From Marsupella aquatica (lineage: Eukaryota; Plantae; Marchantiophyta), in NCBI GenBank assembly GCA_973895155.1, contig OZ316894.1, forward strand, positions 14,151,680 through 14,215,679: 64,000 bases of DNA. Reading direction: 5' to 3'. The notes beneath the pieces are model-generated. The model did no database searches. It was given only the letters and a program-made list of their open reading frames with translations, and had not been told where the DNA came from. Shown here in pieces: positions 8,560-61,309 of this stretch. The position numbers were made by a program, and so were the translations under genes. Each line of letters starts with the position of its first letter. Position 1 is the first letter of the stretch.

Positions 8560-8610
8560 GTGTTCGAGTTTCTTGATCGCGATCCAGACTACTTCGGGGA
8601 CGCGGATTAC

Positions 8611-9827: not shown

Positions 9828-11741
9828 CTAATCTATGACCTGGGTTCGGTTAAGTGACATGTTACCCGTGTCACATAGCTCCCCACTCAAGTGTGAAGCG
9901 TCCTCGCGAACATCATTACGCTCATTGTCCTGGTGAAAGTACCTCTTCACACGGTCGTAACTAACTCGATTGGGAAAGAGGTCGCCGGCGTACGTTGATA
10001 GCTGGAGGGATCCGTTCGGGTACATCTGCTGGACAACGAAAGGTCCTAGCCAGCATGTGTGTAACTTTCCTGGAAAGTACATGTACCTACTGTCGTACAG
10101 AAGGACAAGATCTCCCGTAGTGATGTCCACCTGGCATAGTCCCTTGTCGTACTGTTTCTTTGTTGCTTCTTGCTTGGCAGTTACGCCTCGCGATGCCCAC
10201 AATCTCTATTCTTCTAGACTGTCGATCTTATATGCTCGATCGGATGAACTAGCGGCCTCCGGTAACCTGTGGCGGATGCGTACCCGCGGGGTCTCGACCT
10301 CGAACTCGACGGGTATGAGCGCATGTTGTCCGAATACCAAGAAATACGGACTATGGTTTGTGGTAGTCTTAAACGCCAAGTTGTACGAATAGACCGCAGC
10401 AAAAAGCTTGTCGTCCCAATCTATTTTGTGGGCTGCCACGGTTTTGTTGAGGATTTTCCCTACGATGCCATTAGCTCGCTCTGCTAGTTCGTTACATTTG
10501 GGATGATAAGGGGTAGTCTTCCTGTGCTTGACGAGGTAACGGTCAGTCAGTTTTTCCATCGTTTCGTTCAAAAAATGAGTCCCACGGTCGCTGACTAATT
10601 CCAAGGGAGGTCCGAAACGGGTGAAGATCTGTTCGTACAGGAACCTGGCGATGGTGGCCGCGTCATCCTTGACCGTTGCCCGGGCCTCGACCCATTTAGT
10701 CGAGTAGTCAATAGCAAGAAGGATGTACCGGCAACGCCGACCTCGGGTTACAGGGGTGAATGGTCCGATATAATTGATGCCCCATTTCTCAAACAGGGCA
10801 AGAGGAAAGATCGGGGTAAGAGGATGATTACCCGATCTGAGGGGTTTGCCCACGCGCTGACACAAGTCGCAACCTCGGATAAAATGGGCTACGTCGTGAT
10901 GAAGCGTAGGCCACCAATAACCTACGTCCAAGATTTTGTGAGCCGTGGTGACCGGGGCGAAGTGTCCTCCTACCTCCTCCTCGTGCATAGCTTGCATGAC
11001 AATGATCGTCTCGTTATAATCTAGGCATCTGCGGATCTTCCCATCGACGCCTTCCTTATGCAGATGTCCGCGTATCATCATGTATGGTGCGGCCTTGCGT
11101 AGAAAGACTGATGCGGCCTCTTGGTTTATGTTACTTGGAATGCGGGCCGTTAAGAGGAAGGTGATTAGGTCCCCGTACCACGTTGGTTGGTCCGTTTCTA
11201 CGCGGAACAATTCTTCATCAGGGAATGCACCATCGACAGGTGCGTCGTCTGATTCCCCTTCAATCCTTGAGAAGAAGTCCGCATTCACGTGTGCTTTCCC
11301 TGGTCACACCCTGACTTCGTAGTCAAATTCTTGGAGCAGCAGGACCCAACAGGCTATTCTCCCCGTCAAGTCTGCTTTGTTTACCATGTACTTCAGGCTG
11401 TCATGATCAGTATGGAATACTACCTTATATCCCAATAGATAATGGCAAAACTTTTTACACGAGTAGATGATTCTCAAGGCCTCCCGATCGGTGGGCGAAT
11501 AGTTTTTCTCTGCGGCAAACAGTTGTCGGCTCGCAAAGTAAATGGGGTGGTCACGTTTTTCGTCGTCCAGTTGGCTTAGGACTGAGCCGATGCAAAATCC
11601 AGACATGTTGACATACACATGGAACTCCTTGTTCCAATCGGGGGTAGTCAAAATCAGAGCCATAGTTAGCTGGTTTTTTAGTCCGTCAAAGGCTGATTTT
11701 CGACGGGGAGTCATTTCTATGACCGCGTCTTGCTTCATCAT
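9828..11741 (-). pseudogene. Gypsy pol fragment: RNaseH and integrase
   Basis: HPIYFASRQL...EKNYS..REAL...HTDH (RNaseH); H..GGHF...CDLCQ zinc finger; LVSDRGTHF...LAERAN core; WLGPF. One frameshift near 11300 and one stop near 10205. Confidence 0.9.
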
Positions 11742-11844
11742 TTCTGTGAGGGGTAGGGCTATCTTCTAATGAGGTCAATTATAGCCGATTTGGTCAAATA
11801 CATAGAAAGTTATGCCCTCATAACCGAGAGGGGGTACTCACTGC

Positions 11845-13329: not shown

Positions 13330-14184
13330 GGTCCCAAGGTGGTAATACACACAGAGCTTGCCAACTTGGGTACTTCAGTTCTAAGCCAAGGCTGAACCCC
13401 AAGGAAATGCGCTGACACATGTTCTTGGCGGATTTCAATTTTGAAGTCAGTCACGTTCCTAGGAAGACAAACACGATAGCTCATGCGTTATTGCGTAGGG
13501 ACCATCAATGGGATCACAATGCTTGAATCCGAGTGGCCAAAGGTTCTGGCCGAGGCGTATGGGGATGACAGGCCCGATGACAGGTTAGCCAAGGAATGGC
13601 AAAGCAATGGGGGTAGCAAAGGCAAGGTAAGGCACATTTCATTGGGGTTGGATATGACGCATAATGTCCAATTATGGCAATACAAGCAGAGGCGTGTGTA
13701 CATCCCAAAGTTTCTAAGATTGGAGGTTCTGCAAAAGTACCATGACTCGCCTTGAGGTCGGCATGGCGGACAAGCTACTATATATCATAACATGTCATGA
13801 GAGGTGTATTGGTCGGACATGAAGCAATCGGTTCTTCGCCACGTACAAAGTTGTTACTTGTGCCAAAAGAACCGAATGGTCTATTGGGCAAAAGGAGGAC
13901 TTCTACAGCCCTTACCAGTAGCCGCGGCCCCATGGGAGTCCATCTCCATGGACTTCATTGTGGGGTTACCTGAGTCCCACGACAATAACTCAATCTTAAC
14001 AATTGTGGATCATTTTTCCAAAATGGCGTATTTCTTGCCGACTCCAAAAATGGTTTTGGCCTAAGAGGTTGTTGGTCTAGTGTTTGACAATGTCTTTTGG
14101 CAACGGGGATTGCCGTTGCATATCGTGTCCGACCGCAACACCAAGTTCACTGGCCACTCCTGGAAGGCGTTGTTCCGGTTATCT
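13330..14184 (+). pseudogene. Chromovirus RNaseH end and integrase N-half
   Basis: FLADFNFEVSHVPRKTNTIAHALLRR; EVLQKYHDSP...CYLCQ; GLLQPLPVAAAPWESISMDFIVGLP; IVSDR. Interrupted at 14184/14185. Confidence 0.85.
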
Positions 14185-14680
14185 TGTCATGCCAAGGGAC
14201 AATGCCTCTTATGCACATTGGCATGTCCCTCGCATGCTCGCTCGGTATGTAGTTAGGGCTAGTGTACTACTTGAGTTAGCAACATGTTCTTATAGCAAAT
14301 TTCAGGCGTTTTTGAAGCAAACGCGCTTGTTAGTGTGACGCCAGGACTTTGTTTACTTAGGGCATGTCTTTCTTTGTTGGTTTTTAGTTCTTCTTGAATC
14401 GCTGTTGACATAGCTCAAACAGTGCTCGTCGGTTCCGTACACGGGATTCACACAGTGATTCGTTAGATGCTCCCGACCGATCTTGGCATCCTGCCGGTTT
14501 TTTATTCGATTTCAGTACAATTGTTTCTCTTACACCTTTTATTCAAGAAGAACTGTCGAGATAGTGGTGAGGGGAAGAAGATTGCTCGTGACGATTTCGA
14601 CAATTTCTGGTGAAGCCATTGCAATTTCTTCGACGGACATCGGATCGGAGTGATGAGTTAAAAGTTATGACTTTATTGTG

Positions 14681-14716
14681 GTGTTATGTGTATACTTAAG
14701 TGTATACACATAACAC
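14681..14716. repeat. Perfect 15-bp inverted repeat (hairpin) in the leader of copy 1
   Basis: GTGTTATGTGTATAC-ttaagt-GTATACACATAACAC. Confidence 0.9.
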
Positions 14717-15004
14717 TCCCTTGGGGGGCCCGGGTTTTTTGTTTCCGGCCACAATCTTCTTTGACCGGCTAATCCCGCTTCCGACTGTCACTGCCGATCT
14801 GCTACCCTGGATTGCTTCCGGCTGCTGCACCCTCGCTTTGAATTAATGCGTTTGCCCCTTTTTCTCCTGTTTTCTTTCTTCCGGTCGACCGTCGCCTGGT
14901 TCCTCTCTTTTCCCCCATCGTTGCTCCTCGGCTGCTCGGCCACCTGCATAGGGTCGCGCGCCACTTTTCTTGTTATGCCGAGTACAAAGCGACAGTCAAG
15001 AGGG

Positions 15005-15485
15005 AGGGGGCACACGACCCTATGCTGCATAATTAAGGAGGGGAGGGGAGTTAAGTCGACTCCCTTCTTGGGAGTACATACAACTCCCTGCTCGGGAGTT
15101 TCTGCCAGAGGGCACAAAGCCCCAATTGCTTTTAGAGGAGGGGAGGGGGAAGCAAAAGGAGGGCACAAAGCCCACTTCACCAGCATTAAAGAAGGGGGAG
15201 GGGGGAGTTGAAGCGAAAGGAGGGCACGAGGCCCTATGAGTAATTAAAGAGAGGGGGAGTACATTCGACTCCCTCCTCTCGGGAGTCACGGTCCTGCCAG
15301 GCACGAGGCCCCATTAAACATTAAAGTAGGGGGAATTACACTCAACTCCCTGCTTTCGGGAGTACTTTTGCCAGGGGCGAGCACAAGGGCACGAGGCCCT
15401 ATGAAGCAATAAAGAGGGGGGAAGGAGGAGTACATTCAAACTCCCTTACACGGGAGCCCTTCTGCCAGGCGCGAGGCCCTATGCA
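15005..15485 (+). repeat. Tandem degenerate repeats with GGGAGT/ACTCCC hairpin modules in the leader of copy 1
   Basis: Recurring gggcacgaggccctatg, attaaag and tctgccag motifs; five ACTCCC-N5-7-GGGAG(T) stems near 15059, 15083, 15268, 15345 and 15440. Confidence 0.75.
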
Positions 15486-16084
15486 GGGCTCGAGCTATTA
15501 ACTCTTGGGGGTCCCATTTCTCTTTTTCCCTTCTCCTACCTTTGTTGGTTTTCTTTCCATACGCACGCCGTTGCATTCTTCATCTTTTGGCTGGATTTTT
15601 TCCTATTGCCTCGCTGCGTTTGTTGTGTATAGGGTCGCGTGCCTATACACATTCGGGCTTCGGCCGGTCCACCTTAAACCAGATATGTATACACTTAGGG
15701 GCGGGCCCATTTTGCACCGTATTTCTTTCCCGGGGTCCGGTCGCTACATAGGGATGCGAGCACGGTTTGTGTATACACCTACGGCTTGTGCATACACATT
15801 GGGGACCCCATTTCGCCGTTTACTCTTGTTTTCTTCCGCTTCATTTATTTTGACCCTTATAGGCAAAGCCAATATACACATAGGGGCTAATTTCATTCTG
15901 TTTAGCCCGGCCTCCTTGCCTCACACCGTTTGCTTCATTGTGGGTTAATTTTCTAGCCTTGGGGCTGCCATTTCTTTTCTTGTCAGTTTCTTTCCCGACA
16001 ACACCTCATACCACCAGAAAAAGAGGGGGGGTGGAGACATTTCTTGTTGCGACCATTTCCAATTTGGCACCCCGGGTTAGCAGC

Positions 16085-17365
16085 ATGTCAGCAGAGGAGC
16101 CGAGTCATAGCAGCTCATCGCCACCGACACCCCAGTACCACTTACGGAGTGATCCACGACCGTTGGTGCCAATTTTGTTGGAGTCTCGGCAATTTTGATG
16201 ACGCCAGTAGACAGCAGCAGCACCCACACCACGCAATCCTTCTGCTACATTTGGCGGTCACTTTACCACTACCCTGAAGCCTACTATCACTTCTCTGCCC
16301 TTTACTCCTTCTGCATCAGTGATTGTTCCAGCTTCACCGACATATAGCATGGATGCCAGTCACTCATCTGGCCGCATTGAGCGCTTTAGTGGGCGGCCAG
16401 ACACTGTTTCTTTGCGTGAGGTCAAATCCACTTTCTATACTATCGTTTACAAATTGGAGTTGAAGTACGGCAGCAATTTCACAAATGCTTTTGCATTTAA
16501 GCAGCTAGCCAGGTATGTGCACCACGAGGCTTTGGATGTGTATGAATAGCACTCTCAACGGTTGCTTGCTGTCACACAATTGCCTAACCCTACCTATGCC
16601 AGTGCAATTGCGGCTGCCTCACAACTGGCATTACAGAATGCCATTGCAGCCCATGCTGTTGCTCCTGCCACTTCCCCTCCTACTCCAGTTCCTACCACTA
16701 TGCCAATTACTCCCACTATCTTGGCAAAGGCTACATCAGGCATTTCTCCCACCATTGATTCTCCTGCCTTTGTTGATCCAGTGGCTGAGTTTTTCCAGGT
16801 TCTTGAATTGGAATTCCCAATCAAGAGTGCTGACAAAATCATGCAGTTGGCCACCTTTGTGAGGCAGCGCAATGAAACCTTGAAGATGATGTATCGCCGG
16901 CTTCTCAAGCTGAAGGAGGACACCCAGAGCATCACTGACCTGGAAGCTGCTCATTGCTATCTTCGCGCATTGGAGGGCACACCAGCTCTCCATTCGCAAG
17001 TGTTGCAGCAAGTATTCTCAGAGTTTGGAGACAGCTACACCCTGCTCAATGTCTATGACATTGCTGAGAAACTTGAGTTGGCCCATGCATATTATGAGGC
17101 CAGTATTGCGCATCCACCGCGATCCAGGTACCAGGCTGTTGCCCCTACACTGGCCACCCCTTCCCGTGTGCCACAATATGGTTCCAAGACCAAGCTAGCC
17201 CATGCTGCTTTCATGCTGCCATCTTGCAACTATTGTGGTAACCCCAATCACAAGGCTAATGAATGTGATATTGTTGCTGAGGACCTGTCTTGTGATTTTT
17301 GCGGGAAAGTGGGTCACTTGGAGGCAGTTTGTTTTGCCAAATTCCCAGAGAGGAAGCAGCTATGA
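16085..17365 (+). pseudogene. Gag of copy 1 with two CCHC zinc knuckles
   Basis: Single frame from ATG 16085 with in-frame C>T-type stops; 'IERFSGRPD' Gag motif; CNYCGNPNHKANEC and CDFCGKVGHLEAVC. Confidence 0.8.
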
Positions 17366-18185
17366 TAGCAGGCTCCTCATCCTGCTCCTGCTTCCACTCC
17401 CCCACCAGCTAGGAGGGCTCCTATTGCCTCAGTTGCTCCTCCTTCCAATGGCAAAGCACCTGGTGCCAACAAATCGCCCAAGCAGCAACAGAAGCAACCA
17501 GCTCAGAAGGAGGCTCACAACGCACAGGCAACTCAACTCTAGTCTCTGACTCATGAGGTTGAGTCCCTACGTGCCCAACTTGCCAACATCAAACGCAAGT
17601 CAACTGCCTCTACTGGTCCTTCTCAACCGGCTGGTCACGTGCAACCCATCCCTGGCCCAGGCACCACTGATAGCTCAGCATCTCTACGTACCCCGCTCTT
17701 TTTATGGCTTGCCATTTGATGCTCATATGGGTGAGTGTGTGCTGTCCTCTGCTACACAGCCTGGCCTTACAGTAGAATCTTTAGATTCATTCTGCCCTTC
17801 CTATTTTGCTTACCAGTAGGCGAGTGCTGCCTTTCGTATTGCTCCCACACGCCGCATTGTATAGGCTGATGGTCTTGCTGCCGGTCCTATGACTAGAGCC
17901 AGGGGAGCTCGGGCTGTCCTACCCCAATCTTTTCAGCCACTCATACTTGCTAAAGAGCGCACCTTGTTGGCGAGGGGGGAGGGAGCTGCAGCTACATCCA
18001 TTCCACCACCAGGTGCTGTTGACATTTCACAGGGAGTTGTTTCTCCTGAGCTGCTTGAGCATTTCACCTCCGGTATGGCACAAAGGATTCTTACAACTCC
18101 ACTTTTTAGTTGCCATGATTTATAGCTAGATGCTAGAGCTGTCATCAGAGCGCTAGAGGGTTCACTGCATTCTTCATCAGCCCCT

Positions 18186-20160
18186 GTGACACCGGTTTTG
18201 GAGGTCCAATCTCATGTACATACTGGACCTTTTTCTTCTCCATTACATGCTTCCACTGGTTTGGCTATCCTAGTACCAATTTCCAGTGGTAGAAATGACA
18301 GTATTGCTGCAGATTGTGTGACTAGAGCTACACTTGATTCTGGTCATGCTGCTCCATCTTTCCTGGCTATGCTGTTGAGTGGGAAGACCATGGACACTAA
18401 CTCCCTTCACAAGGTACCTCATCATTTGCCAAAAGTGGTGCCTAGTGACAGGACTTTAGTTTCCACCACCATTGCCATTGTTGACAACAGGAATTCAGCG
18501 GTCAAGTTGGAGGGTCACACTCCTCAGGTGGTCATGCTAGACACAGGCGCTCAACCAGTGATATTGGGCATTCAGTTTGCCAAGAAGATGGGACTATTGA
18601 CTGATCATTTACAGCAATCCAAGTGGCACATTTGGACTGCTAGTGGCACTATGGAGGATGTGCTGGGTGAGAGTTCTACTTTACTCACTCTCACTTTTAA
18701 TGGAGGTACAGATCAGGAATTGCATTTCCCAATCAGATGTTTGGTTACCAATGCCACTACGTATGATGTGCTCATTGGCCAGGAGGCTTTGTTCCCACCA
18801 GGTTTTACCATTGACAACTGGCATGAGCATGCATACTACAAAGTTGATTGGCATACGGATGGCTCACACTTGGGCTACAATCCACTTGATTTGCATGGTG
18901 CCCATACACCTATGGCTCACCACTGTGTGTTGAAAGCAGTGCACACAGCTACCTATGTCAACCACCCATTGCAGGATTGGATTGAGGAGGATGATGATGA
19001 GGTGGCTATTGCACATGCTGCTGCACATATAGCAGCACTTTCCAGCAACGTGGATCATCAACCAGAGGTGGTACAATGGCTCCAAGCAGCCCATGGACCT
19101 TTGGTGGCTGCATTGCGCAAATTTGAGGACCTTGGGCAGCACAATGGCCAACCAATAGCCCCAATCTTGAGCGCACCAGTTACATGGACTCCTCCTTTAG
19201 ATGGCCTTACATTGCTTGAGCTTTTTGGTGGCATTTCTACAGGCCTAGAAGCTCTCCTACAGTCTGGCATGGTGGTGAAGCAGTACATCTATGTGGACAT
19301 TGATCCAGGTGCAAGGCAAGTGGCTGAATCCCGTCTACTGGAATTTTCAGAGCAATTTCCCCAGCAGTTTCCACACAGTGCATGGAAGTCTGCATTTTCT
19401 TTCTTTCCTCCAGATATCCAACTTGTCCAGCACCGGCACTTAACCCTTCTTGGCTCCCTTGATTTGATCATAGCTGGTTGGGAATGCCAAGGGTTTAGAG
19501 CTGCTGGTCACGGTGCTGGACTGCATGATTCTCATTCTGGTCTTTTCACAACATTGGTTCAGATTCTCACCTGGGCTCAATCCCTTTATCCTGCTGTTGG
19601 TTATATCATTGAGAATACTCCATCTCGGTTTGACCAGCGTCCACAGGTCAAAGAGGATTTCAGTGTGGTCCAGCACTACTTGGGACCACCCCTTCTCATT
19701 GATGCACTGCACTATGGTTCTTATGCACATCGTCTTCATAACTTTTGGACTAACCTTGCACCACCTTCCTTGTTGGAGTTAGCTTTTCACCACACATCCA
19801 GGGACACTAACCTCACAGTGGACCAGATTTTGGATCCTAACAGTTCTTGCCAACCAGTTACACGGCAAGAGCTAGCACCTTGGTATCCAGCCAATACCAT
19901 TGGACAGCCCCGTGCTACTTGGCCTACATTTGTATCCTTTCCAGGTGCACATGCCTTTCAGGGTGATGGTCCTAGCCTGGTTTATTGACATTCTACCGGT
20001 ACTTGGGATGAACCTAGTCCTGAGGAGAGAGAACGGGCTATGGGCTTCCAATCCGGTACTACAGGCCACACCCACATCACCAGGCTGGTCAGGAATGCTT
20101 TACTTGGCAGGGTGATGGATCTTAATGCTCTCACTTGGCTTCTGGTCACTTGCATCTGGA
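18186..20160 (+). pseudogene. Aspartic protease followed by DNMT3-like C5 cytosine methyltransferase domain (copy 1)
   Basis: Protease VMLDTGAQP...YDVLIG. MTase motifs: I LELFGGISTG (19215), II YVDID, IV GWECQGF (19476), VI IENT (19611), VIII AHRLHNFWTNL, IX EERERAMGF, X RNALLGRVM. One in-frame TGA at 19986-19988. Confidence 0.9.
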
Positions 20161-20469
20161 GTTCCAGCTCTACCACTCCATGGTGCTGCTACATGGCATC
20201 CAGACCAGGTGCACTTACCTCTATTCAACACTCACTGCTTCAGTCCAAGTGTTGGGGGGGAGGAGGTCCCTTGTAACGTGGCTGACAATATTTCTGAGTT
20301 TCATGGTGTGGACCAACTCAGATCAGCAGGTACAACAGGCCTTGGAGAGGCCTCATCACCTTATCAGCAGCATGCTAGCAGCTTGGACAGTGGAGAGGCT
20401 GGCACTTCTGGCTCTTCAAGCACGAGTACATAAGGTCCTATTCCTAGTGTTGCCAACTACACATTCATC

Positions 20470-22090
20470 ATGGGCAACCACCTAAGTAAAAGACAAAAGG
20501 ACCAGCTGCTGAATTTGCTCCTCAAGCATGAGAACGTGTTTGCTTTCTCTATGAAGGACTTGGGTAAGTGCAAGACTATGCAGTTCTCCATTGAGTTGGC
20601 TGATGAAACACCTATCTTCAGGCGAAGACACCGTTTGAGTAAGCATGAGTGGCAGCTGGTGGATGAGAGGTGCCAAGAGCTCTATGAAGCTGGTCTTATT
20701 CAGCCATCTACATCAGATTTTGCAGCAGCTATAGTGATGTCAACAAAGAAGGATTCCAGTGGATTATGGACAGAGAAGCGCATGTGTGGGGACTACAGGC
20801 CACTGAACCTGGTCACACCCCAGGACAGGTACCCCATGCCACGGCTAGTGGAGCTATTTGACAGCATTGGAGACTCAAACATCTTCACTCTTGTGGATCT
20901 AAGGCAAGGCTTTAACCAGATTTTGCTGCTTGCAAAGGACCGCAAGAAAACAACTTTCCATGGTAGTAACCAACTATGGGAGTGGTTGGTGATGCCATTT
21001 GGCTTGAAGAATGCGCCCATATTCTTTCAAAGAGTCATGGACCAGGTTCTCCAAGGTGCTGAGTTTCTGAAATGCTACATTGATGATGTGTTGGTCCACA
21101 GCAAAGGATTTGACCAGCATCTACTTGACCTTGAGGAGCTATTCATTAGGCTTAAGAAGGTGAACCTAAAGATACACCCCAAGAAGTGTGAATTTGCTGT
21201 CAGATCAATAGTATACCTTGGGCACCGCATTCTTCCAAATGGAACCATGGCTCACTGGGCCAAGGTGGTATCCATCTTGGAAATGCCCACTCCTACTAAT
21301 GTTCACACTCTTAGGAGATTTATTGGGTTGTGCAATTACTACCGGATCTACATCAAAGATTTTAGTACCATTGCACATCCATTGTATGTTTTGTTGAAAA
21401 AGAATGTGACTTGGACATGGAGTACAGATGCTGAGGCAGCATTTGCCACTTTGAAGGAGAAGCTCTTAGAATACCCAGTGTTGAGAAGACCTGATTTCAG
21501 CAAGGTCTTTGTGTTACACACAGATTGGAGTGCCCTTGGGATTGGTGCCATTCTGGGCCAGCATGATGAGGAAGGTAAAGAGTATGTCATTGCCTATGCA
21601 TCTAGGAGCAACAATCAGGCAGAGAGTCATTATTCTTCTTATGAGGGTGAATGCCTTGCTGTTGTGTGGGTTGTCATACATTACAGGCCCTACCTCTATG
21701 GGACCAGGTTTGTTCTCTACACCGACCACCAGCCCTTGAAGTGGTTGATGACCAACGACAAGCTTACTGGCAAGCTTGCTCGTTGGGCGCTCATACTCCA
21801 GGAGTATGATTTTGAGGTAATTCATAGGCCTGGTGTGACACATCAAAATGCTGACACTATGTCCCACAGCCCTTTGATTGCCTCTGATGATTCCTCAGAT
21901 GCACAGCAGGATTTTGACCAGGTTTCCATCCTGCCTACATTTCATGCATCTACCTATCTTGCTTTGCTGCCATGCTACGTTGTTGACCAACCTGTGGTGG
22001 ACATATGGGAGAACAGCGACACTCTGAGATTTTTGCAGCATGGGGAGTACCCCATACAGGTTACTGCAACCCAAAGAGACCAATTTAGCA
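20470..22090 (+). CDS. Reverse transcriptase and RNaseH of copy 1
   Basis: RMCGDYRPLN, DLRQGFNQI, MPFGLKNAP, YIDD; RNaseH LHTDWSALGIGAIL...AYASRS...YEGECLA...TDHQPL. Frameshift near 22085. Confidence 0.95.
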
Positions 22091-23441
22091 AAGGTCCAAG
22101 CGCTACTTGTGGAAGGGAGATCATCTTGTGCGCTGCTTGCCAGACAGGGAAGTGGTGGTTCCACCCATTCATGAGAGGGTTGGCCTTATCCGTAAGGTAC
22201 ATTCTGAGCTTGGTCATTTTGGCATCAAGAGGACTTACAGCCTCTTGGTTCCCCATTATCATTGGAGAGGCATGCATGGCCAGGTTTGAGATGTTATTGC
22301 CCGGTGTGAGCAGTGTGATAGGGTAAGGACTTCTTTCACATCTTGGCAACCCACACTTCATCCACTCCCTATTCAGGGCATGTTTTATCGCTGGTCATGT
22401 GATCTGGCTGGAGAATTACCCCTCACTTCTCGGGGTAATCTCTACATCATGATCATGATAGAGCATTTCTCCAAGTGGATAGAACTTGTGGCATTGCCGG
22501 ATAAGACCTCCCGTAGCACCAGCCAGGCATTCCTGCAACAAGTTCTCAGTCGCTTTGGAGCTTGTGCAGAATGTCTCACTGACCAGGGCTCAGAGTTTAG
22601 AGGAGAGTTCCAGGAGCTGCTTGATCAGGCCCTCATTGATCATCGCCGGACATCACGAGATCACCCACAGGCAGATGGTTTGGCAGAGCGCATGGTTCAG
22701 ACATGCAAGAAGGGCCTCCGGAAGATCTGCCTCACCAAAAACAAGGAGGATTAGGACCTGGCCTTACCCTACATTGCTATGGGGTATAGGATGTCCAGAC
22801 ATGCATATATCACTGTCTAACTTTTCTCCCTACTTCTTGTTGTTTGGTCGTCACCCAGTTCCACCTTCTGCTATTGCTGCTCACATGCTTCAGGTGGTGG
22901 ACTTGGATTCAGCTGTGACTTGGTCTGATGTGATCTCTAAGAGGGCTGCCCTATTCAGGAGGGTTATGCCCATGCCATGGAGAATTTGGCCATTGCACAG
23001 CACAAGGACACATTGCGTTATGCACACACACGAGGGGGCAGTTTTCAGCCCAAGGTCAGGAAGTTTGATGTGGGAGATTTTGTGTACTTGCAGCGGCAAG
23101 CTAACGACACCCTGGACACCTCTACCAGTCGTACTATTCTCAAGGTTAAAGCTATTCGACCGTCTGGAGTGCTAGAGTTACAAGGGGCAGATGGGCGCAC
23201 AATTGCTGACAATGCTAAGAATTGTGCCCCTTGTCATCTGCCTAACCTGGATCCCACCATTGTGACTTCTACCTGGATTCCACCTGTGGACTACCCTTGC
23301 AAAGTGTGTTTGCGAATTGACGATGTTGACCAGATGCTACTGTGTGATAATTGCAATGGAGGGTACCATCTTTTCTGCCTTCGGCCTGAACTTACCCAAG
23401 TACCAGAAGGGTTATGGTTTTGCCCTTCCTGTGCTACCTGA
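22091..23441 (+). pseudogene. Integrase with C-terminal PHD finger (copy 1)
   Basis: H-x-GHFG...C..C zinc finger; DDE core WSCDL / LTDQGSEF / GLAERMV; PHD CKVC...LLCDNCNGGYHLFCL...WFCPSC (23298-23432). A few stops and frameshifts. Confidence 0.92.
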
Positions 23442-23655
23442 TTTTTCTTCAGCCCCCTTTTGGCTGTGGTCTAGGGGGGATACAGAGGTTTACACCTCCA
23501 CTACGTACATACCACCTCAATTGCTTTTTCTTGGCACTTGTGAATGTGATTGGACTTTTTCTATGCATGTTGGTTGCTAGCAACTTGCACATATGCATTG
23601 TTGGTGACTTGTATGTTTTCGATACACTATGGCTACGATACTATATGTCACGACA

Positions 23656-24485
23656 ATCTGACATAGACCTTACTAGAGGATTAGCGTATCATCATGAGAC
23701 AGATGGCCAAACAAAATGGGTGAATGGTATCATAGAGGATGACTTGCGTCAATTTGTGATGGCCAATCAAAAGGATTGAGCAAAGCACTTAACAATGGTC
23801 AAGTTTAGGTATAACTCGACCAAGCATTTGGCAATGGGGTTTGTGCCGTTTGTGTTGGCCACAGGGAGGACGCCAAGGGCGCCCTCTTGGTTCATAAATC
23901 CAAAATCTTGGCAGATGGAAAGCAAGGTTCCTTCTATGGATGATTTTATTTGAGAGTGACGCCTAGTTGTGGAAGCGGCTACCAAGGGTATGACCCTTGC
24001 CCAAAGTTGGTACAAGGAGCAAGGGGATAAACATCAATGTCAGGTAAGCTTCAAAATTGGGGAGAGCGTCTAGTTGTAGTTGAGACCTAAGCACTACCAC
24101 AGGAACATAAGTAAGAAGCTGTCTCCCAGGTATGTGGGGCCCTATTGCATCATACAATGGGCCCACAAGGATAATCCAGTTTTGGTGGTGTTGGAGACAC
24201 CAAGGAAATGGGTGTACGCAAAAGCTACCATGTTAGCCGACTCAAGAAATTTGTCAAAGACAATGATCCCAACCGGGATCAAGTCCTCCGTCCAGACGCC
24301 AGGCTGTGGAGGACGCTGAGGGGTTTGAGGTGGAGGCAATTCTAGACCACTGTTATAAACGCAAGCTAGGAAGGCAAATCTTAGAGTATTTGGTGAAGTG
24401 GGCTGACTATGACCAAGTCGAAAGTACTTGGGAATTGGAGAAAATTTTGGGTAATGCCCCAGAGATCCTTGGAAGCTATCTTTAG
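23656..24485 (+). pseudogene. Chromovirus integrase C-half, GPY motif and chromodomain
   Basis: AYHHETDGQT; KKLSPRYVGPY; FEVEAILDH...EYLVKWADYDQVESTWE (24324-24480). Confidence 0.88.
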
Positions 24486-43271: not shown

Positions 43272-43425
43272 CGCTAATGGAGTAATGGCGATGCTGGATC
43301 GCTCTCTGCGACACACATACAGTGCAGTAATGTTTAGTGATCGCATGACCTCTTGTCCTTTCGGTAATTCGGTGCATGATGACCGATGATGAGGTCGGAC
43401 AAGAAATAATTAATTTTAAAAGTTT

Positions 43426-46449: not shown

Positions 46450-49400
46450 AGTCAGAGGAGAAGGTTGTGACCCTTGGATTTGGCAAACTAAGAGTCTCCT
46501 GGAAGAAGTGTTGCTAGTACATCTGGTGGGCTACATCAATTGGGGAGTGTGCTAGGCCAGGGAGGGCACAACCCAATGCTCCCGATGGTGCTGTTGCTGG
46601 TGGCAAAGGAGCAATAGCACCCCAATGTCCCTTTCAACCTTCTTATGCCACTCAAGTGGAGTGTTGAATTGGAGCTGTAAGAGACCTCATAACCAACGTG
46701 ACTGCCTTGAGAGTAAGGGTCTACCATGTGTAGAGCAGGGAGGAGATACCCCTAGATAGCCTGATCTTAGGTGTTGTGACCATTGCCATAGAAATGGGCA
46801 TACTATTGAGAGATGTTTTGAGCTGCATCCAAAAATGCGATCTGATGCTGCGCGTAGGGAAGTTGCTCCTAGAGGTTGTGGAGGCCCCCGCCCTGGTCAT
46901 GGAGGTGATAGGGTAGTCCCAGTAGCCATTGCATAGACCATCAATCTAGCAGCAGCCAATTTAGCATTGCGGGCCCCTAGCAAAAGTGAGGCCTCTAGTT
47001 CTCGCACCATGGATAGTTCATAGATTGCTCTTGGCTTCAGCAACTTGGATTATATGTGCGGTGTTGCACAGTTAGATAGTGATGCAGCTATCACCAAAGC
47101 AGTGGCTAAGGCTGCTGAGCCACAAGGTGCTGCCATGGAGTTGGATCCAAAACAAGGGGAGGCCAGCCAACAACAGCAATTACCACATAGTTTTACATTG
47201 ATGGATGTTGCCTGGACTTCTACTATGGCATCAGTTGCTGACAAAAATGGACCTTCTATCCTCTCTCGTGATCACATAGGGCCACATAGCATTGATCCTG
47301 ACATGGTAACTAGCCCAGTGTTGGGGGCGGCTAGAGCCTTGTCAAGTTCCATTATTTTCTTGTGCTCAATTATCTTCCCTTGGAGTTCCTGTTGCAGATG
47401 TGTTGTGCTAGGCAGCTGCATTGTATGATATTGGAGCAATTTTGGCATCTAGCTGTGACACAACTGGTCCATAGGTTGGCCTAGATGGTTTCAAGTCCCG
47501 CCATTCTTTGATGAGAGATGCTGAGACTTCTTGGTAGGCTTTTGCTGCTTGATTGAGTGAGGTCCCTACTAGACCAGCCATTGATTGGAGTGTTGTGACT
47601 CCTGGTGTGGTTGTGGTGGACAACCGTGCTGGTGTTTTTACATTGGTTGGCCCTAGTGGCACGGTGTATGTGCCACCTTGTGTATTGTTGGATTTAGGTG
47701 CACAACCTCTCATGCTAGGGAAAGCAGCTATCCAAGGATTGGGCCTGAAGAAGGCTAAGGTGGAGCCTTTCCCATTTCAGATTCATACATCTCTTGGTGT
47801 ACAAGAGAAGGCGCAACACATGATGCAGGACAATCTCACTGTGAGGTTAAATCCCCACCGTATTGGAGATGATTTTGCCTTGAAGGTGAGAGCCGTTGTC
47901 ACACCTGCAGAGTCTTATGATGTTTTGGTAGGGGGAGTCGTACTCTACCTATGGGCTTTGTGTTGGATTACTAGCAAGAGACTATTCACTATCGACCAGG
48001 ATGGCAGTCTGGTGATGGTAGGAAGTGTGAGCTGCCACTACACTACTTCTTGCGTCGGACTGAGCCGTCACCAGAGAAGGTGATTAGTTTGTGAGCTTGT
48101 GCTTGAGCTATCACCTGGCCAAGTGATCTCTTGGAGGGTAATGCCCACGCTACAGACATCCCTATAGTAGAGGAGTTGCCAAGCTCCTCAGGTAACCACA
48201 ACATTCCCGTTGTACCACAGGTATGGGGTTCCACTCCTGAGTTACAGCAGCATGCAGATTTGTATGTACAGGCAACTTGGAGTGAACCATTTGCCCCTTT
48301 AGAGGAGCCACATGTGGTGGATGGCATTCCCAGTTTGATTACTATGTCCCTATTGGACACCACTCCCATTTTGTGGACATACCGTGCTGAGGGTATTTGC
48401 TTGTTGGAGTTGTTTGGAGGCATGAGCACTGGTTTAGTTGTTGTTTTACATGCTGGTATTAGAGTGCAATAGTATCTCTATGTGGAGCAAGATGACACAA
48501 CACGACGTGTCTCACTTCATCATGTTGCTCAGTTGCATCAGTAGTTCCCTGATTTGTTGCCCTTGCCAGCTATCAGAGGTTATGAGAATGCTTTGCCAAC
48601 TGACATCTCACTTTTGGGGGCGTTAGATTTAGTACACGTAGGTGAGATTCACCTTGTGATTGTTGGTTGGCCATGTCGGGGACATTCCTCTACTTGGACA
48701 GGATCTGGTCTCAAGACCATCATTCTCACATATTTTGGGCAATGCTGCGTGTGATGAGGTTTTTACAGGAGAAGCAACATATCTCTCCAACCTATATATA
48801 GGAGAATGTCCCCTTGTTGGGTGATACTAGGTCACATATGGTGGCTAGTATGCACCAAGTGAGGTCCTTGTTAGGACCTGCTGTCTTTTTAGATGCTGCT
48901 AGTGTCAGATCGATAGCACATCATCCACAATTATGGTGGACCAATTTGAATGCCACCTGAGGTTTTGCGGAGGGCATATCAGCACATTGTGCGGCCTGTT
49001 GGGCTCACCGTGGACCGCATTTTGGATGCTAGACGACATGCACAATTAGTGCGCCACGATGATCGCTCCCCATTAGCAGTGGTGAACCGGGTTGGTCAGC
49101 CACTGCAACACTACCCACTTTGGTGAGTTTCCTCTCATTGTATGCTTATCGTAACGGTGGATATGGGTTAATTTGGAATTCCCAGGACATCTTGCTGATA
49201 GAACCTATTGCTGATGAGCGTGAGCGTGCTACGGGATTCCAGACTTGCCCCACAACAGTACCCTTAGTGACTGAAGCAGCACGCCGTCACATTCTAGGTC
49301 ATGCTATGGATCTTAATTGTTTGACTTGGATTGTGAGCTTAGCCTTGGCAGAGTAGCGCCAGTTACAATCTTCTGTGACACATCCACATGGATGCTCTTC

Positions 49401-52400
49401 CTCTATCGGGTCACTAGAGATCAGAGCAGGGGGCAACAGTACCATAGATCGTCAACCCTGGACTTCATGGGGAGTCAATGGAGAGGCCAATGGGCTTTCT
49501 TTTTTGCAACAACATGGTATTGCTACTCCTCAGGTTGCAGCATAGCAACCATAGTTGGCATTCTTTGCCCCTTCTACCAAGGTTATCATTGATAGTTGGG
49601 AGCCAACTGATGGCCCCAAGATCACTGGAGGTGAGAGACGATGTGTATGACAGTTTTTGCGGAGTTATGGAAATTGTTTGCTTTCAACATGTAGGGTTTG
49701 GGCATGTTAAAGGGACCAGGCATCCAAATAGATTTGGCAGTTGATACGCCCATCTTTTGGATACCATATCGGTATTATGATATGGAGAGGGCACTAATTC
49801 AGGCAAGGTGCCAGGATTTTGTTGGTAGAAGGAATTGTGGAGAAGTCATTTGGTGAGTATGCTTTTGCCATTGTGATGCCAGCAAAGAAGGATATGCATG
49901 GCAATTGGACTAATAGGAGGATGTGTGGAGACTATCATCCAATTAATCAGCATACTAAGTCTGATAGGTTTGCCATGCCCACCCTAGAGGAGATATTTGA
50001 TACCATTGGGCATGCGAGAGTATTTAGCACATTGGATCAGGATTGGTGACAGGCAAAAGACAGCATTCTAGGGGATTGTTGCTCATTGTTGTATCAATGA
50101 CTATTTTCACCAGCTGAGTTTCGAAGGGTCATGGATTGGATTTTGGCAAACCTGGATTTTGCCAAATATTATATAGATGACATTATTGTCTATAGTGACA
50201 CTGTGGAGGAGCATGCTATATATTTGCAACAGGTGTTTGAGCGACTCCGAGAGTATGGATTGAAGTTGCATCCTGGAAAATATAAGTTCTTCCATGACCA
50301 GATTGCATATTTAGGGCATAGCATTTATTCAGGTGGATTGGGTGTGTAGCAAACAAAGGTGGAGGAAATTGTTGGCACCCCTTAGCCTACAGATGTGAGT
50401 AGAGTCCAAGCATTTTTTGAGCTTGCAAACTTCTACCGAAGGTATGTGAAAGGATTCAGTGCAATTGCAAAACCTTTGACATTACTTACAAGACTGGACC
50501 ATGAGTAGCAATGGGGTGTTGACCAGGATAGAGCTTTCTATCAGTTGAAGGAAAAGTTCACATCAGCACTCATCTTGAGGAAACCTATTAGGGGACGTCC
50601 ATTTAGGTTGCATACTGATTGGAGCATGCTGGGACTTGGAGAAGTGCTCACTCAATAGGATGACGAAGGAAGGAAGTTTGTGGTAGCATATGCCAATCAA
50701 TCAAATAACATTGCAAAATCAAAGTATGGCTCCTATGAGGGATTATGCTTGGTTGTAGTGTGGGCAATGGCTCATTTTTTATGTTACTTGTTTGGCAATC
50801 CCTTCACTCTTGTTATGGATCACCAACCACTCAAATGGTTGATGGAATCAGACAAACTTATTGTTAAGCTTGCTCATTGGGCACTCATACTTTAGGAGTA
50901 TGATTTTGAGGTCTTGCATAGACCTGGTCACTTACATTAGGATGCTGATGGATTGAGTCATAATCCTTGTCCAAGCCAGAGGGATTTAACAGGAGCACAT
51001 TGGCATGATGAGGCAGATGAGGAGATGGTGCCAGGTTGACATGCTTCTACTTATTTGTGCTTGTTGTTAAGTCTGGATGGTTTTGGTGTAGTGGCATCAT
51101 TAGAGAGACCCAATGCAGACTTTGTGGATCCAGAGATTTCTAGTGAGGAGTCTGTTGGACATGATATTCATGATGATGTAGATGTTGTGTGTATCTATGC
51201 ACAGGTAGCATGCCAGGCATGATAATTGCCAAGGAGAGAGATTGGATCCTACAACAAGCTAAGAGGTTTAGATGGGAAGGATCTCACCTATTGAGAGTTT
51301 GGGATGATGACAGGGTGCGGTTGGTACCTCCTTTATCCCAGCGTGCACGGTTGGTGCGACATGCTCATGAAGAGCTTGGACATTTTAGAGTGAAGCGGAC
51401 ATATAACTTACTCCAGACCCAATATTGGTGGCGTGGAATGCATGCTGAGGTGCAATAGTTGGTGGCGCGGTGTATTGTGTGTGATAGAGTGAGAGCATCA
51501 TTTAATGCTCCTACCTTGCAGCTGCATCCCTTGCCAATCTTGGGCTTGGGATATTGTTGGAGTTTAGATTTTGCTGGACCCTTATCATTGACTAGACATC
51601 ACAACCGTTATGCTTTAGTGATGGTGGAACACTTTTCTAAATGGATTGAGTTGGTTGCATTGCCAAATAAAGGTAGTGAAGGAGTTGCCTATGCCTTTTT
51701 GGATCGTGTATTGAGCCATTTTGGTGCTCTAGCTAAGATTTTGACTGACCAGGGGACTTTGTTTTGGGAAGATTTTTAGGCCTTGTATGATCAAGCATTG
51801 ATTGATCACCATACTACGTCTAGGGATCATCCGGAGGCAAACGGATTGGCAAAAATAGTTGTCCAGACAATGAAGAGAGGATTGCGGAAGTATGGCTTGC
51901 AAAAGGATCATGTGAGTGATTGGGATATCCAACTATCATGGTTAGCGATGGGATATTGTTTCAGTAGGCAAGCATCTCTTGCATCCTTTTCACCATATTT
52001 GCTGCTCTATGGTAGAGAGCCAGTGTTGCCAACAACCATTCAAAGGGAGGTTGGTGAGGTGTTGCAGTTGGATGACCTTGATATATGGATGCAAGCTTTT
52101 TCTCAACAGGCAGACTAGTTTTGGAGAGTGATGCCCATGGCGTTTGAGAACTTAGCTATTGCGCAGCATCAAGATACTTTGAGGTATGCCACTATTCGGG
52201 GAGGAGGATGTTGCCCTAGCATTAGGCAATTTCGTTCTAGAGATTATGTGTATCTGCAACAGACAACACCTATTACTTTGGATGTTACTACCAAACGTAC
52301 TATTCTGCAAGTGCAAAAGGTTCTGCCATCAGGCATCCTGATTTTAGAACGTCGTGACGGTATAGTTTGAAAGGATCATGTGCGTAACTATGCACCTTGT

Positions 52401-52896
52401 CACCTTCCAAACATTGATGATAGCATAGATCCTAGTCTAGCAGTGGTACCTGCAGGTTTATGATGTATGTTGTGTGGATCTGCCCGTGGAGTTGCAACCA
52501 TGTTGATTTGTGATGGTTACTCAAGAGGTTGGCACTTGGCATGTTTGACGCCACCTCTTGATTCAGTCCCTGAAGGACGATGGTTGTGTCCCAATTATAG
52601 ATAGAGATTGACTTTAGTTAGCATAAAACTTATTAGATAGTATAGATTGCAGGTAGGCGATTAACGATGGGGCTCCTTTGCACCCGGCCTCTTGATCTGT
52701 GCACCCAAAAGGTGTATACTTCCTTTTAGTTTTAGGGCTAGTTGTAGTTAGCGGGAAATCCTAAACCCTAACCACCAGGTAGGGGGGGTGGTTATGGATT
52801 TCAGCATACATATGTTGTGTGTTGTGTGATTATATTTTTCTTGTTTACATGATGTGCTGCTATGTGAGTTGTGTATGGATGTGTGTCCGCACGGCA
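46450..52896 (+). mobile_element. DNMT/PHD-carrying Ty3/gypsy element, copy 2 (5'-truncated, decayed, divergent subfamily)
   Basis: PR 'LLDLGAQPLMLG...YDVLVG'; DNMT LELFGGMSTG, GWPCRG (48665-48682), ENV (48802), WWTNL, DERERATGF, RHILGHAMDL; RT YIDD; RH TDWS; integrase; PHD ~52464-52600; PPT aggggggg 52781-52788; terminus CACGGCA at 52896. Confidence 0.88.
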
Positions 52897-57218: not shown

Positions 57219-57222
57219 GGCT

Positions 57223-60200
57223 TGTCGTGTGCATACACATCGCTACACAACATACATCGCTTGTCACACATATCCAAGCATAGTCACAATCCACTAACAC
57301 AAACATAAGAGAATGGAGTACAAATGGAACCAATATCCACACATGCCCAAAACCCACAATAATCTTTTTTGGATGAAATCGAACAACGATCAGTGCTAAT
57401 CCAACAACGATCCCGTCCAACTCGATCACACATATATGTCAAGCCCAACGCACCTTGTGCTTCAAGGAATCCACGTTAAATGCACACAACCTGGTCAACC
57501 ACACCATAGCCACCAAGCTCATGCTCAAAGGCTTAACATTGAAAGATGAGGCCTTTGAGCCAACACAAGGGGATAACTATCCCTCACACCAACTCAAACT
57601 AAACACAAAGTGCTCATATAGCACACATACAAAACCTCTATACCCTAGATAGTACGATATACTTTACTACCACTCTAAATGGTGTGACAGCTGTCGTGCG
57701 CATACACATCGCTACACAATATACATCGCTTGTCACACATATCCAAACATAGTCACAATCCACTAACACAAACATAAGAGAATGGAGTACAAATGGAACC
57801 AATGTCCACACATGCCCAAAACCCACAATCGCCCCCCTAGCTGGGAGTGAAGTCCCCTAACTCTAGCTAGCCATGAGTTCTACAAGGTTAATATACACCT
57901 TTTTAGGTGCGAAGATCAGGAGGCAGGGTGCAAGTGAGCCCCATCGATCACCTACCTGCAATCTATATCTTCCACAAGAACACAAATGATAACTAGTTGG
58001 CATCACCGACATTGAGGACAAAACCATGATCCGCTAGGAATCATGTGCAATGGTGGTGTCAAACACGACATGTGTCATCCTCTAGAACACCTATCACAAA
58101 TCAACATAGTAGCTGGTTCCCGAGCAGACCCACACAACATACACTTCAAGCTAGCACGAACATGTGCCAAGCTTGGATCCACAGTGCCATCAATGTTTGG
58201 AAGGTGACATGACGCACAATTACGCACGTGATCCTCCCAAACCATATCATCACGCCCTTCCAACATAAGGACTCTAGAAGGCAACACTTTACGCACACGC
58301 AAGATTGTCCGCCCTACGGTCACATCAAGCGTTGTTGGTGCTGTCTGCTGCAAATAAACAGAATCGCCAGGATGAAATCTCCTAATCCTCGTGCGATAAC
58401 CTCCTCCACGAATAGTAGCATACCGCAAAGTATCACGATGCTGGGCAATAGCAAGGTTGTCAAAGGCCATGGGCATGACTCTCTCAAAAACTTATGCCCT
58501 CTCTGAACAAACCTTTACCCAAATATCTGGATCATCCAAATCCACAACAGTTGCAACATCACAACGAATAGCCGTTGGCAAATCTGGCTCTCTACCATAG
58601 AGCAAGAAATAGGGTGAGAAGGATGCAAGTGATGCTTGTCGACTGAAACGGTAGCCCATAGCTAACCAAGGTAGTTGGAGATCCCAGTCTCCCAAATGAC
58701 CAACCTGCAAGCCATATTTGCGCAATCCTCTCTTCACAGTTTGTACAACTCTCTCTGCCAATCCATCCGCCTTAGGATGATCGCGAGAAATAGTGTGATG
58801 GTCAATCAGAGCTTGCTCACACAAAACCTCAAAATCCCCATAGAATTCCGTGCCCTGATCAGTCAACACCTCAGCTGGTGCTCCAAAGTGACTGAGTACT
58901 CGATCCAGAAATATGGTAGCCACTCCTCTACTAGCTTTATCTGGCAATGCCACTAGTTCAATTCCACTTGGAGAAGTGCTCCACCATAACCAAAACATAA
59001 CGGTTATGTCGTTGGGTGAGAGGCAATGGACCAGCAAAGTCCAAACTCCATCTGTACCCCAAACCCATGATTGGCAATGGATGCAACTGGGGAGTGGGAG
59101 CATTAAATGATGCCCTCACTCGATCACATACCACACACTTAGCTATCAGTTGCTGGACATGAGTGTGCATACCACGCCACCAATACTGTGTCTGTAGCAA
59201 ACTGTAAGTGCGCTTCACACCAAAGTGATCCAACTCCTCGTGCGCATGTCGCACCAAATGTACTTGTTGTGATGGTTTTGGTACCACCAATACCTTACCA
59301 TCACGTAGTACTCTCAAAAGATGGTTTCCTTCCCATCGAAACCTCTTGGCTCTCTGTAGAACCCTGTCACGTTCCTTGGCATCAACACTGCCAACAATAG
59401 AACCACTGAGCAAATATTCCAACACTCTCACATCATTGTGAATATCTTGTTGTCCAGAAGTTACCTCACCAACATACACATCTGAAGACTCATCATCTAC
59501 TTCATCCAATGAAGTAGAATCCACAGATCCACTGCATGCTGGAACCCAACCAAGGAAGGCAGATGCATGCCATCCTGGAACCATCTCCTTATCTGACTCA
59601 TCATGCCATCTGGCTCCAGTCTCATCCTGCTGACTGGTACATGGGTTGCGGCTCAATCCATCCGCATCCAAGTTCACTTTTCCAGGTCTATGTACAACCT
59701 GGAAATCATATATTCCTGCAATAACAATGCCCATCTTGCAAGCTTCCCAATAAGCTAGTCAGACTCCATTAACCACTTGAGAGGCTGATGATCAGTGATC
59801 AAAGTGAAAGGATTACCAAACAAGTAACAACGGAAGTGTGCCACAGCCCACACTGCTGCCAAACACTCTCCCTCATAAGAGCTATACTTAGCCTCTGCTG
59901 AATTGTTTGATCTACTGGCATATGCCACAACAAACTCATGCCCTTCATCATCTTTCTGAGTCAGCACTGCTCCAAGTCCTACTCCACTCCAATCAGTGTG
60001 TAGCTGAAATGGTCTCCCTGAAATGGGTCTTCTCAAAATAGGGGATGATGCCAATCTTTCTTTCAACTCCTGAAAGGCATGCTCCTGATCATCACCCCAA
60101 ATCCATTCCTGATCCAACTTAGTGAGTATGGTCAAAGGTTTAGCAAGCTGGCTAAATCCTTTAACATACCTCCTATAGTAGCTCGCCAATCCCAAGAATG

Positions 60201-61305
60201 CACGAACTCTGCTCACATCAGTAGGACGAGGAATCTGTGTAATGGCCTCCACTTTAGTCTGTTGTACACCCAATCCCCCTGGGTATATAGTGTGGCCCAA
60301 ATACTCAATCTGTTCTTGGAAGAACTTACACTTGCCGGGATGGAGCTTCAATCCATGTTCCCTCAATCTCTCAAACACAATCTGCAAGTGTCGTTGATGT
60401 TCTTCCATAGTAGAAGAATAAACCAAAATATCATCAATATAACATCTGACAAAATCCAAACCTGCAAGGATTCGATCCATGACTCTCTGGAACTCAGCTG
60501 GTGCATTCTTCAACCCAAATGGTAAGAACAACCACTAATACAAACGATCCTTGCCATAAGAATCAATTCCCCAGAATGTTGTCTTGGACCTGTCAGAATG
60601 TCTGATTGGAAGCTGATGGTACCCTGCCCTCAGATCCAATGAACTAAAAACCTTTGCATGCCCCACTGCATCAAAGATCTCCTCAGGTGTGGGCATGGCA
60701 TATCGATCAGATTTTGTCTGACGATTAATAGGTCGGTAATCACCACACATACACCTATCCGTGTAATTACCATGCACATCCTTCTTGGCTGGCATCACTG
60801 TGGCAGATGCATACTCCCCGTATGAGGTCTCCACCAAACCAGCCTCCAACAAATCCTGAGTTCTGCTCTGAATCAAAGCTCTTTCCATGTCACTATAACG
60901 ATATGGTCTATGAAAGATTGGCGCATCACTAGCCAATTCAATCTGAATACCAGGGCCCTTCAATGTCCCCAAATCCTTCATGCTGAATGCAAAACAATTC
61001 CAGTAACTCTTCAAGAATCGATGCATGCGACGTCTCTCCTCCCCAGTCAACTTAGGACCAATCTGTGGCTCCCAACTCTCCACCAGATCAGCGCAATGCA
61101 CACAACCTGGTCAGCCACACCATAGCCACCAAGCTCATGCTCAAAGGCTCAACATTGAAAGATGAGGCCTTTGAGCCAACACAAGGGGATAACTATCCCT
61201 CACACCAACTCAAACTAAACACAAAGTGCTCATATAGCACACATACAAAACCTCTATACCCTAGATAGTACGATATACTTTACTACCACTCTAAATGGTG
61301 TGACA
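57223..61305 (-). mobile_element. Copy 3 of the PHD-integrase gypsy family (internal deletion removes gag-PR-DNMT), with split/permuted repeats
   Basis: TSD GGCT (57219-57222 / 61306-61309); removing the insert and one TSD restores the copia gag frame (KKLGQA|SSQAQ). Repeats A 57223-57360 / 57692-57829 and B 57479-57689 / 61095-61305. RT YIDD, RH TDWS, integrase, PHD ~58010-58143; PPT revcomp at 57830-57840. Confidence 0.92.
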
Positions 61306-61309
61306 GGCT

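Follow-up and report, generated by a model that had tools for sequence, protein, structure and literature searches.

We found that a decayed Ty3/gypsy retrotransposon, here called element 1, carries a C5 cytosine methyltransferase (MTase) domain in its polyprotein. Very probably, the domain is DNMT3-like and element 1 a dead liverwort member of the Gypsy-DNMT3 kind. The kind itself is already described; its range across green plants, two layouts of its polyprotein and an end junction are added here. The window, that is, the whole stretch of 64,000 nucleotides analysed, holds element 1 and two sister elements, with the following features.

14185..23655, +: element 1, a decayed Ty3/gypsy element of the Gypsy-DNMT3 kind, with the ends TGTCATG...CACGACA
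14185..14542, +: left terminal segment A of element 1; joint 14542->23480 in other copies
16349..17674, +: gag of element 1, with a zinc knuckle at 17222-17269 and four stops; 61% to Calypogeia P0410
18498..18842, +: aspartic protease (DTG) of element 1; PF13975 (E 2e-5) and family HMM
19188..20156, +: C5 cytosine MTase domain (DNMT3-like) of element 1, broken, with canonically ordered motifs I-X
19986..19988, +: premature TGA within the element 1 MTase
20629..21807, +: reverse transcriptase (RT) and RNase H of element 1; PF00078 (7e-28), PF17917 (3e-38)
22089..23441, +: DDE integrase of element 1 with a C-terminal PHD finger at 23298-23435; PF00665 (1e-14), PF00628 (4e-12)
23480..23655, +: right terminal segment B of element 1
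47673..52896, +: element 2, divergent and more decayed; protease 47673-47951, MTase 48395-49317 in two frames
57223..61305, -: element 3, a deletion derivative without gag, protease and MTase; A-RT-RNase H-integrase-PHD-B-(GC)-A-B

Element 1 and its methyltransferase domain

The domains of element 1 follow the order gag, protease, MTase, RT, RNase H, integrase and PHD finger. The gag-protease-RT-RNase H-integrase order, the DDE integrase, the TG...CA ends and a short target duplication (4-bp ATCT at 14181-14184 and 23656-23659) are those of a Ty3/gypsy element. The PHD integrase noted in the preliminary description is confirmed, as PF00628 matches after PF00665. No tyrosine recombinase was matched in the ORFs scanned, and the DIRS/PAT tyrosine-recombinase class was rejected because an rve integrase and 4-bp target duplications are present. 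PF00098 matched the gag under its cut-off (E 1e-3). The RT frame differs from the MTase frame in element 1 only; both lie in one frame in the relatives P0124, P0321 and P0410. Stop codons interrupt the gag frame four times, the linker three times and the MTase once; another lies ahead of the RT, several more fall in the integrase, and frameshifts are found in addition, the integrase included. Because every ORF has stops and frameshifts are added to them, this copy cannot be active. Compared with element 1, other copies (run X1) showed 130 T>C and 108 A>G changes, and 72 C>T and 44 G>A changes; most of the changes private to element 1 are C>T/G>A decay that it underwent itself. Contig depth over the MTase was of about the same order as over the RT, depth being different from copy number.

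Element 1 sits inside the integrase of an old chromovirus (3344-26401, +), and contigs of other chromovirus copies contain the empty-site joints 14183->23663 and 14181->23687. This chromovirus, which also hosts another nested gypsy, has LTRs that are 82-84% alike, an integrase split at 14184/23656 and a chromodomain near 24320-24480. The LTR pair 3344-4486/24935-26401 was considered for element 1 and rejected, since it belongs to the hosting chromovirus. The 5' leader of element 1 holds a tandem array (15007-15486, +) whose five units have diverged and are about 80-110 nt long; they carry GGGAG/CTCCC motifs, and joints in other copies skip parts of the array. A gypsy fragment (7441-11765, -) contains RNase H and integrase, then the ORFs 7441-8610 and 8611-9408 without a Pfam match; its CpG ratio is 0.86-1.03, undepleted unlike its neighbours. 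At about 34000-43300 (-) lies a host gene of several exons that encodes a peptide chain release factor 3 (RF3) of cyanobacterial type. The host exon 34608-34796 is identical to RF3 of Calypogeia fissa at 97%, Marchantia at 92%, Riccia at 87-89% and Sphagnum at 87%. These identities indicate that the host is a liverwort, which bears out the earlier impression of a land-plant genome.

All MTase motifs named in the preliminary description were located in canonical order: LELFGGISTG (19215-19244), YVDID (19290), DIQL (19413), GWECQGF (19476-19496), IENT (19608), LLIDA (19692), AHRLHNFWTNL (19725-19757), EERERAMGF (20022-20048) and RNALLGR (20091-20111). They share one frame with the protease signature MLDTG at 18534, and this frame has no stop between 18126 and the TGA at 19986, beyond which it goes on to about 20156. 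With PF13975 on the protease and the RT downstream, the claim of a C5-MTase embedded between gypsy protease and RT holds. The TGA at 19986-19988 precedes the last two motifs, and the element 1 MTase is stopped before motifs IX-X. At the equivalent codon, four other homologous proteins end and 25 read through. A programmed stop was rejected because of these 25 proteins and because the L001 codon begins with CpG. Two further positions depart from the family: motif VIII reads AHRLH, with His at the second Arg (Arg in 162/169 homologous domains), and residue 104 is Arg (Ser in 168/169). The DNMT3 patterns cited earlier thus stand in part; E.ER..GF and R..LLGR align with DNMT3, but AHR.R.FW.NL is broken by this His. 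The PF00145 check that had been proposed was likewise divided. The element 1 ORF gave 20.2 bits (E 4.6e-4), just under the cut-off of 22, but the intact relatives P0123 (36.6 bits) and P0122 (28.5 bits) passed. The family HMM built in this analysis matches the element 1 MTase at 19206-20129 with an iE of 2e-138.

Profile and fold both point to DNMT3. As a single sequence, the element 1 MTase had DNMT3A as its best PDB-chain match (E 5e-4). A profile built from 73 family members gave DNMT3A (E 3.5e-19), DNMT3C (7e-17) and DNMT3B (2e-16), followed by DRM-type enzymes (3.6e-12 to 2e-9), HhaI (8e-8) and DNMT2 (8e-4). The DRM match is confined to the piece expected from permutation, namely the N-terminal part of the family against the C-terminal part of DRM. 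The motif order I-IV-VI-VIII-IX-X lacks the circular permutation of plant DRM, in which VI-X come before I-V. The element 1 domain, read with X at the stop, gave a predicted structure with a pLDDT of 89.6, and the 33 PDB matches listed for this model were all DNMT3 entries (TM 0.63-0.73, rmsd 3.0-4.9); identity in the structural alignment with DNMT3A was only about 20%, and the best viral match had a TM of 0.63 with an rmsd of 8.1. The earlier description of the domain as DNMT3-like and unpermuted is supported by this profile and by the predicted fold, and the family falls nearest to the DNMT3 clade.

The family has the C5-MTase motifs I, IV, VI, VIII and X with the catalytic Cys, Glu and RxR. 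Among 169 family domains, the catalytic Cys is kept in 99%, the motif VI Glu-Asn in 100% and 96% and the motif VIII Arg pair in 99% and 96%; motif IV is W/F-E-C in 101/169 and P-C in 58/169. Four phage Dcm-type enzymes, picked from the top 21 of 234 records in a run that used --max, scored 61-79 bits on the family profile, and DNMT3A scored 72 bits. Since these phage enzymes score like DNMT3A, the capture of the domain from a host DNMT3 stays unproven. ESM Atlas matches were PF00145 clusters only, one mostly streptophyte and two mostly phage.

Sister elements and the end junction

Element 2 contains RT-RNase H, integrase, a PHD finger at 52464-52595 and the right end CACGGCA downstream of its MTase. 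Its RT-RNase H is 46% identical to that of element 1. Its left end was looked for within the 64-kb window and not found. Element 3 has the target duplication AGCC and is inserted in a copia gag, and its RT falls in the same clade as those of elements 1 and 2. The copia-like gag around it (56800-57222 and 61306-63700, -) has a zinc knuckle and an TGGTATCAGAGC primer site near 63690. Element 3 (57223-61305, -) is young; its A copies differ at 2/212 bases and its B copies at 4/138. Its internal junction, ACGACA-GC-TGTCAC at 57697-57684, joins two ends in a palindrome (GACA-GC-TGTC), as if the junction of a circle had been stored there.

A terminal direct repeat was not found in element 1, whose only terminal segments are a single A and a single B. 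By eye, no canonical primer site was noted after A in element 1, and no tRNA genes were found. The set of two full LTRs with a tRNA primer-binding site and a polypurine tract was not found. Among the joints listed (15 of 95), the A-to-B joint 14542->23480 was present in six contigs of run X1, five of X2 and three of X3, and the joint from the B end to the A start, 23656->14185, in one X2 contig with the spacer AC, not GC. The arrangement A-ORFs-B-A-B is complete in element 3; for family 1 it comes from contig joints. Because A-to-B and B-to-A joints occur in other copies, the full form of family 1 is likely A-ORFs-B-NN-A-B. The permuted LTRs proposed earlier are therefore seen as split repeats in element 3 and in the joints of other copies, but not in element 1 itself, with its one A and one B end. 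With two matches in the window against 1.54 expected, the short junction pattern carries no weight by itself; the evidence for the junction is the repeats of 138 and 212 nt. DNA-context pattern scans gave one locus from 73 pattern matches in metagenome contigs, and none in viral contigs (0/4 and 0/34 loci) or genome contigs (0/9).

A CA-NN-TG junction would define both ends for the integrase. The ends could arise if the circle is opened at CA-NN-TG by the DDE integrase, or the junction could prime both strands. Copies of the form A-ORFs-B, such as element 1, may come from recombination between B copies or from integration of a one-unit circle.

Relatives, layouts and selection

Homologue searches kept 229/924 and 44/1957 candidates, giving 240 clusters at 50% identity (E <= 1e-30). 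Named relatives are from Calypogeia fissa (73-74%), four Sphagnum species plus S. jensenii, Closterium and Klebsormidium nitens (GAQ93235.1), and among chlorophytes from Chromochloris and Scenedesmus (KAF8056149.1). A neighbouring retroelement domain was reached in 142/303 MTase proteins. The 303 proteins comprise 161 with the MTase only, 32 of layout A (protease-MTase-RT), 108 of layout B (RNase H-MTase-integrase) and two ambiguous ones. All assignable named streptophyte proteins have layout A and two named chlorophyte ones have layout B; most B proteins are unnamed. The protease-MTase position is common to the Calypogeia, Sphagnum, Closterium and Klebsormidium proteins. The gag-pol frame includes the MTase in P0121, P0124, P0321 and P0410, and in Calypogeia P0410 (CAM6101866.1) gag, protease, MTase and the RT start lie in one frame with all motifs intact. 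Elements 1-3 and 68/108 layout-B proteins have a PHD finger behind the integrase; the integrases of P0180, P0305 and P0310 have no PHD match. In the layout-A proteins P0128-P0131, P0311-P0315, P0268 and P0318, the ORF ends 18-154 residues past the MTase. This suggests that the enzyme lies in a gag-protease ORF and the RT in a second ORF, with the enzyme made at the Gag level. The layout-B proteins P0148, P0232, P0288 and P0139 have a G-patch domain between MTase and integrase.

The MTase tree comprises 169 domains with lengths of 270-400 residues; its 20 A domains all fall in a clade of 36 that contains no B domain (support 0.966). In the RT-RNase H tree (64 regions, with 22 redundant cluster members left out), seven A sequences and element 3 form one clade with a support of 1.0. 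The layout split also holds, at 91.3, in an MTase tree rooted with four phage outgroups, whose 34 B domains were 30 drawn at random from 100 plus chosen ones. Since the trees separate the two layouts, the MTase appears to have changed its place in the polyprotein once. The direction differs with the rooting; with the midpoint root layout A is a clade, and with the phage outgroups layout B is a clade nested in A. GAQ93235.1, which has a zinc knuckle, protease and MTase and is 35% identical in the MTase, lies on the layout-A side with the element 1 domain (0.966) and in the retroelement clade against the phage outgroups (97.3). It is presumably KnitGypsy-Dnmt3, and the MTase trees point to common descent with the Klebsormidium element.

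Between element 1 and Calypogeia P0410, identity is 75.5% in the MTase, 77% in the protease and 49-50% in the linkers. The dN/dS of the element 1 MTase against L001 was 0.10 over 321 codons, below a Ka/Ks of 0.2, in one pair with dS near saturation (1.98). Both comparisons support purifying selection on the MTase domain. The outcome that would have spoken against the earlier claim, a domain confined to these copies and evolving neutrally, did not appear. The CpG observed/expected ratio was 0.14-0.33 in the coding parts of element 1 and 0.86-1.03 in the neighbouring MTase-less gypsy; elsewhere it was 0.26 in the copia gag of the window, 0.40-0.68 in the chromovirus and 0.43 in L001. The depletion is not specific to element 1, so host methylation can explain it.

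Possible roles and known systems

In Ty3/gypsy elements, the domains of Gag-Pol assemble together in the particle, and the protease of the element sets them free. In live copies, the particle would be the place where the MTase is cleaved from the Gag-Pol polyprotein; the freed enzyme would carry out SAM-dependent methylation of the new cDNA before integration, possibly in the CG context by analogy with DNMT3A and SymbioDIRS-Dnmt3. New insertions would then arrive pre-marked. On balance we consider this role likely. The inactivity of the Klebsormidium domain in yeast, the W-E-C form of motif IV and the non-specific CpG depletion count against it, as does the recent insertion of element 3 without an MTase of its own, for which complementation in trans is possible.

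It is unlikely, in our view, that an active enzyme acts instead on chromatin together with the PHD-bearing integrase, methylating the insertion site or older copies and so damping the family. The PHD finger in elements 1-3 and in 68/108 layout-B proteins would fit such a role, as would layout B, which puts the MTase directly before the integrase; cDNA self-methylation is the hypothesis of PMC5890265, and insertion-site and self-limiting roles are raised there as well. In layout A, however, RT and RNase H lie between MTase and integrase, and P0180, P0305 and P0310 have an integrase without a PHD match. The C>T/G>A decay private to element 1 could be read as damping, but it is also what host methylation gives. 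A role outside DNA C5 methylation, such as the methylation of RNA, the binding of nucleic acids or work on the end junction during the unusual replication, seems less probable still. The Klebsormidium domain without activity in yeast (PMC5890265), the atypical W-E-C in most members and the company of DIRS-like repeats (PMC5890265) are in its favour, whereas the catalytic positions of a DNA C5-MTase are all conserved across the 169 domains and the fold is nearest to DNMT3, with DNMT2 far lower (E 8e-4). Chance pick-up of a host DNMT3 fragment or a nested insertion in this lineage, followed by neutral drift, is highly improbable. Element 1 is a pseudogene with two family-conserved residues changed and a Pfam score under the cut-off, as such an origin might leave; but this explanation is already contradicted by dN/dS (0.10), by the 240 clusters, by the layouts, with the same position in Calypogeia, Sphagnum, Closterium and Klebsormidium, by the higher identity of the domain than of the linkers, by the lack of introns and by the identity of only about 20% to DNMT3A.

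If the likely role, methylation of cDNA in the particle, is combined with the trees and the end junction, a wider picture can be drawn, which we put forward only tentatively and hold to be doubtful as a whole. Integrase retrotransposons of this type may form a superfamily that spans the green plants, predates the chlorophyte-streptophyte split, is still abundant in bryophytes and has retained one DNMT3-like enzyme, which changed its place in the polyprotein a single time. Such elements would replicate without true LTRs or a tRNA primer, with a CA-NN-TG junction opened by the DDE integrase or priming both strands, and would insert self-methylated cDNA, writing part of the land-plant methylome. 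Apart from that picture, the retrotransposon DNMT3, presented as a one-off charophyte capture, proves to be an old and widespread strategy; it is found under selection in liverworts and mosses, and chlorophytes have it in another layout. The cDNA self-methylation question of PMC5890265 can now be tested with intact enzymes from land plants and in their hosts. Furthermore, some of the DNMT3 genes counted in bryophyte genomes may be transposon copies, and split-repeat elements of this kind will escape LTR finders.

In the full-text literature searched, with subscription papers mostly outside it, there was no report of such elements in bryophytes, other land plants or chlorophytes, and none on a CA-NN-TG end junction. 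The supplementary trees of bioRxiv 10.64898/2026.05.21.726589 and PMC12344493 may include land-plant or chlorophyte copies; both cite Gypsy-DNMT3 as from 'streptophytes', after PMC5890265. The available parts of PMC11244446 and PMC11982613 contain nothing further on the kind. The combination of MTase, PHD integrase and permuted repeats, called unusual in the preliminary description, is so in that a land-plant report was not found; its single parts are less so, as DIRS-like repeats are already in PMC5890265 and PHD fingers in a Chlamydomonas gypsy.

The Klebsormidium precedent named earlier is KnitGypsy-Dnmt3, the first description of the kind, by de Mendoza et al. 2018, in K. nitens only; in the available text its capture is read as specific to that lineage (PMC5890265). 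It shares with the liverwort element an intronless, unpermuted DNMT3-like domain in a gypsy Pol, purifying selection and DIRS-like repeats, the arrangement A-ORFs-B-A-B being that of DIRS and, according to the Fig. 4c legend, also of KnitGypsy-Dnmt3 (PMC5890265). Its host is an alga, whereas the host here is a liverwort with relatives in liverworts, mosses, Closterium and chlorophytes; unlike in its description, two divergent subfamilies lie within 64 kb, and the PHD finger has no occurrence in the available text (PMC5890265). SymbioDIRS-Dnmt3 of Symbiodinium also has a DNMT3-like domain in Pol and split direct repeats, but it is a tyrosine-recombinase element, whereas the liverwort element has a DDE integrase, TG...CA ends and 4-bp duplications (PMC5890265). 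In yeast SymbioDIRS-Dnmt3 methylated CG, and KnitGypsy-Dnmt3 gave no methylation, a result that its authors called inconclusive (PMC5890265). The EpiLTRs of Cymbomonas and Euglena are LTR retrotransposons that likewise combine a cytosine MTase with a chromatin-reading domain; their MTase is sister to DNMT4 and is accompanied by an adenine MTase and a chromodomain, and the preprint sets it apart from the Gypsy-DNMT3 of streptophytes (bioRxiv 10.64898/2026.05.21.726589). Chlamydomonas Gypsy-7a_cRei resembles element 1 in its gypsy polyprotein with a PHD finger and in slightly asymmetric terminal repeats, but it has near-normal LTRs and no MTase among the domains listed (10.1101/2022.06.16.496473). 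With the mammalian DNMT3A/B/C, the liverwort domain shares the motif order, the fold (TM about 0.7) and the aligned C-terminal E-ER..GF and R..LLGR; it differs from these enzymes and from plant DRM2 in having no PWWP/ADD, no UBA and mostly W-E-C in motif IV, and it is unpermuted whereas DRM2 is permuted.
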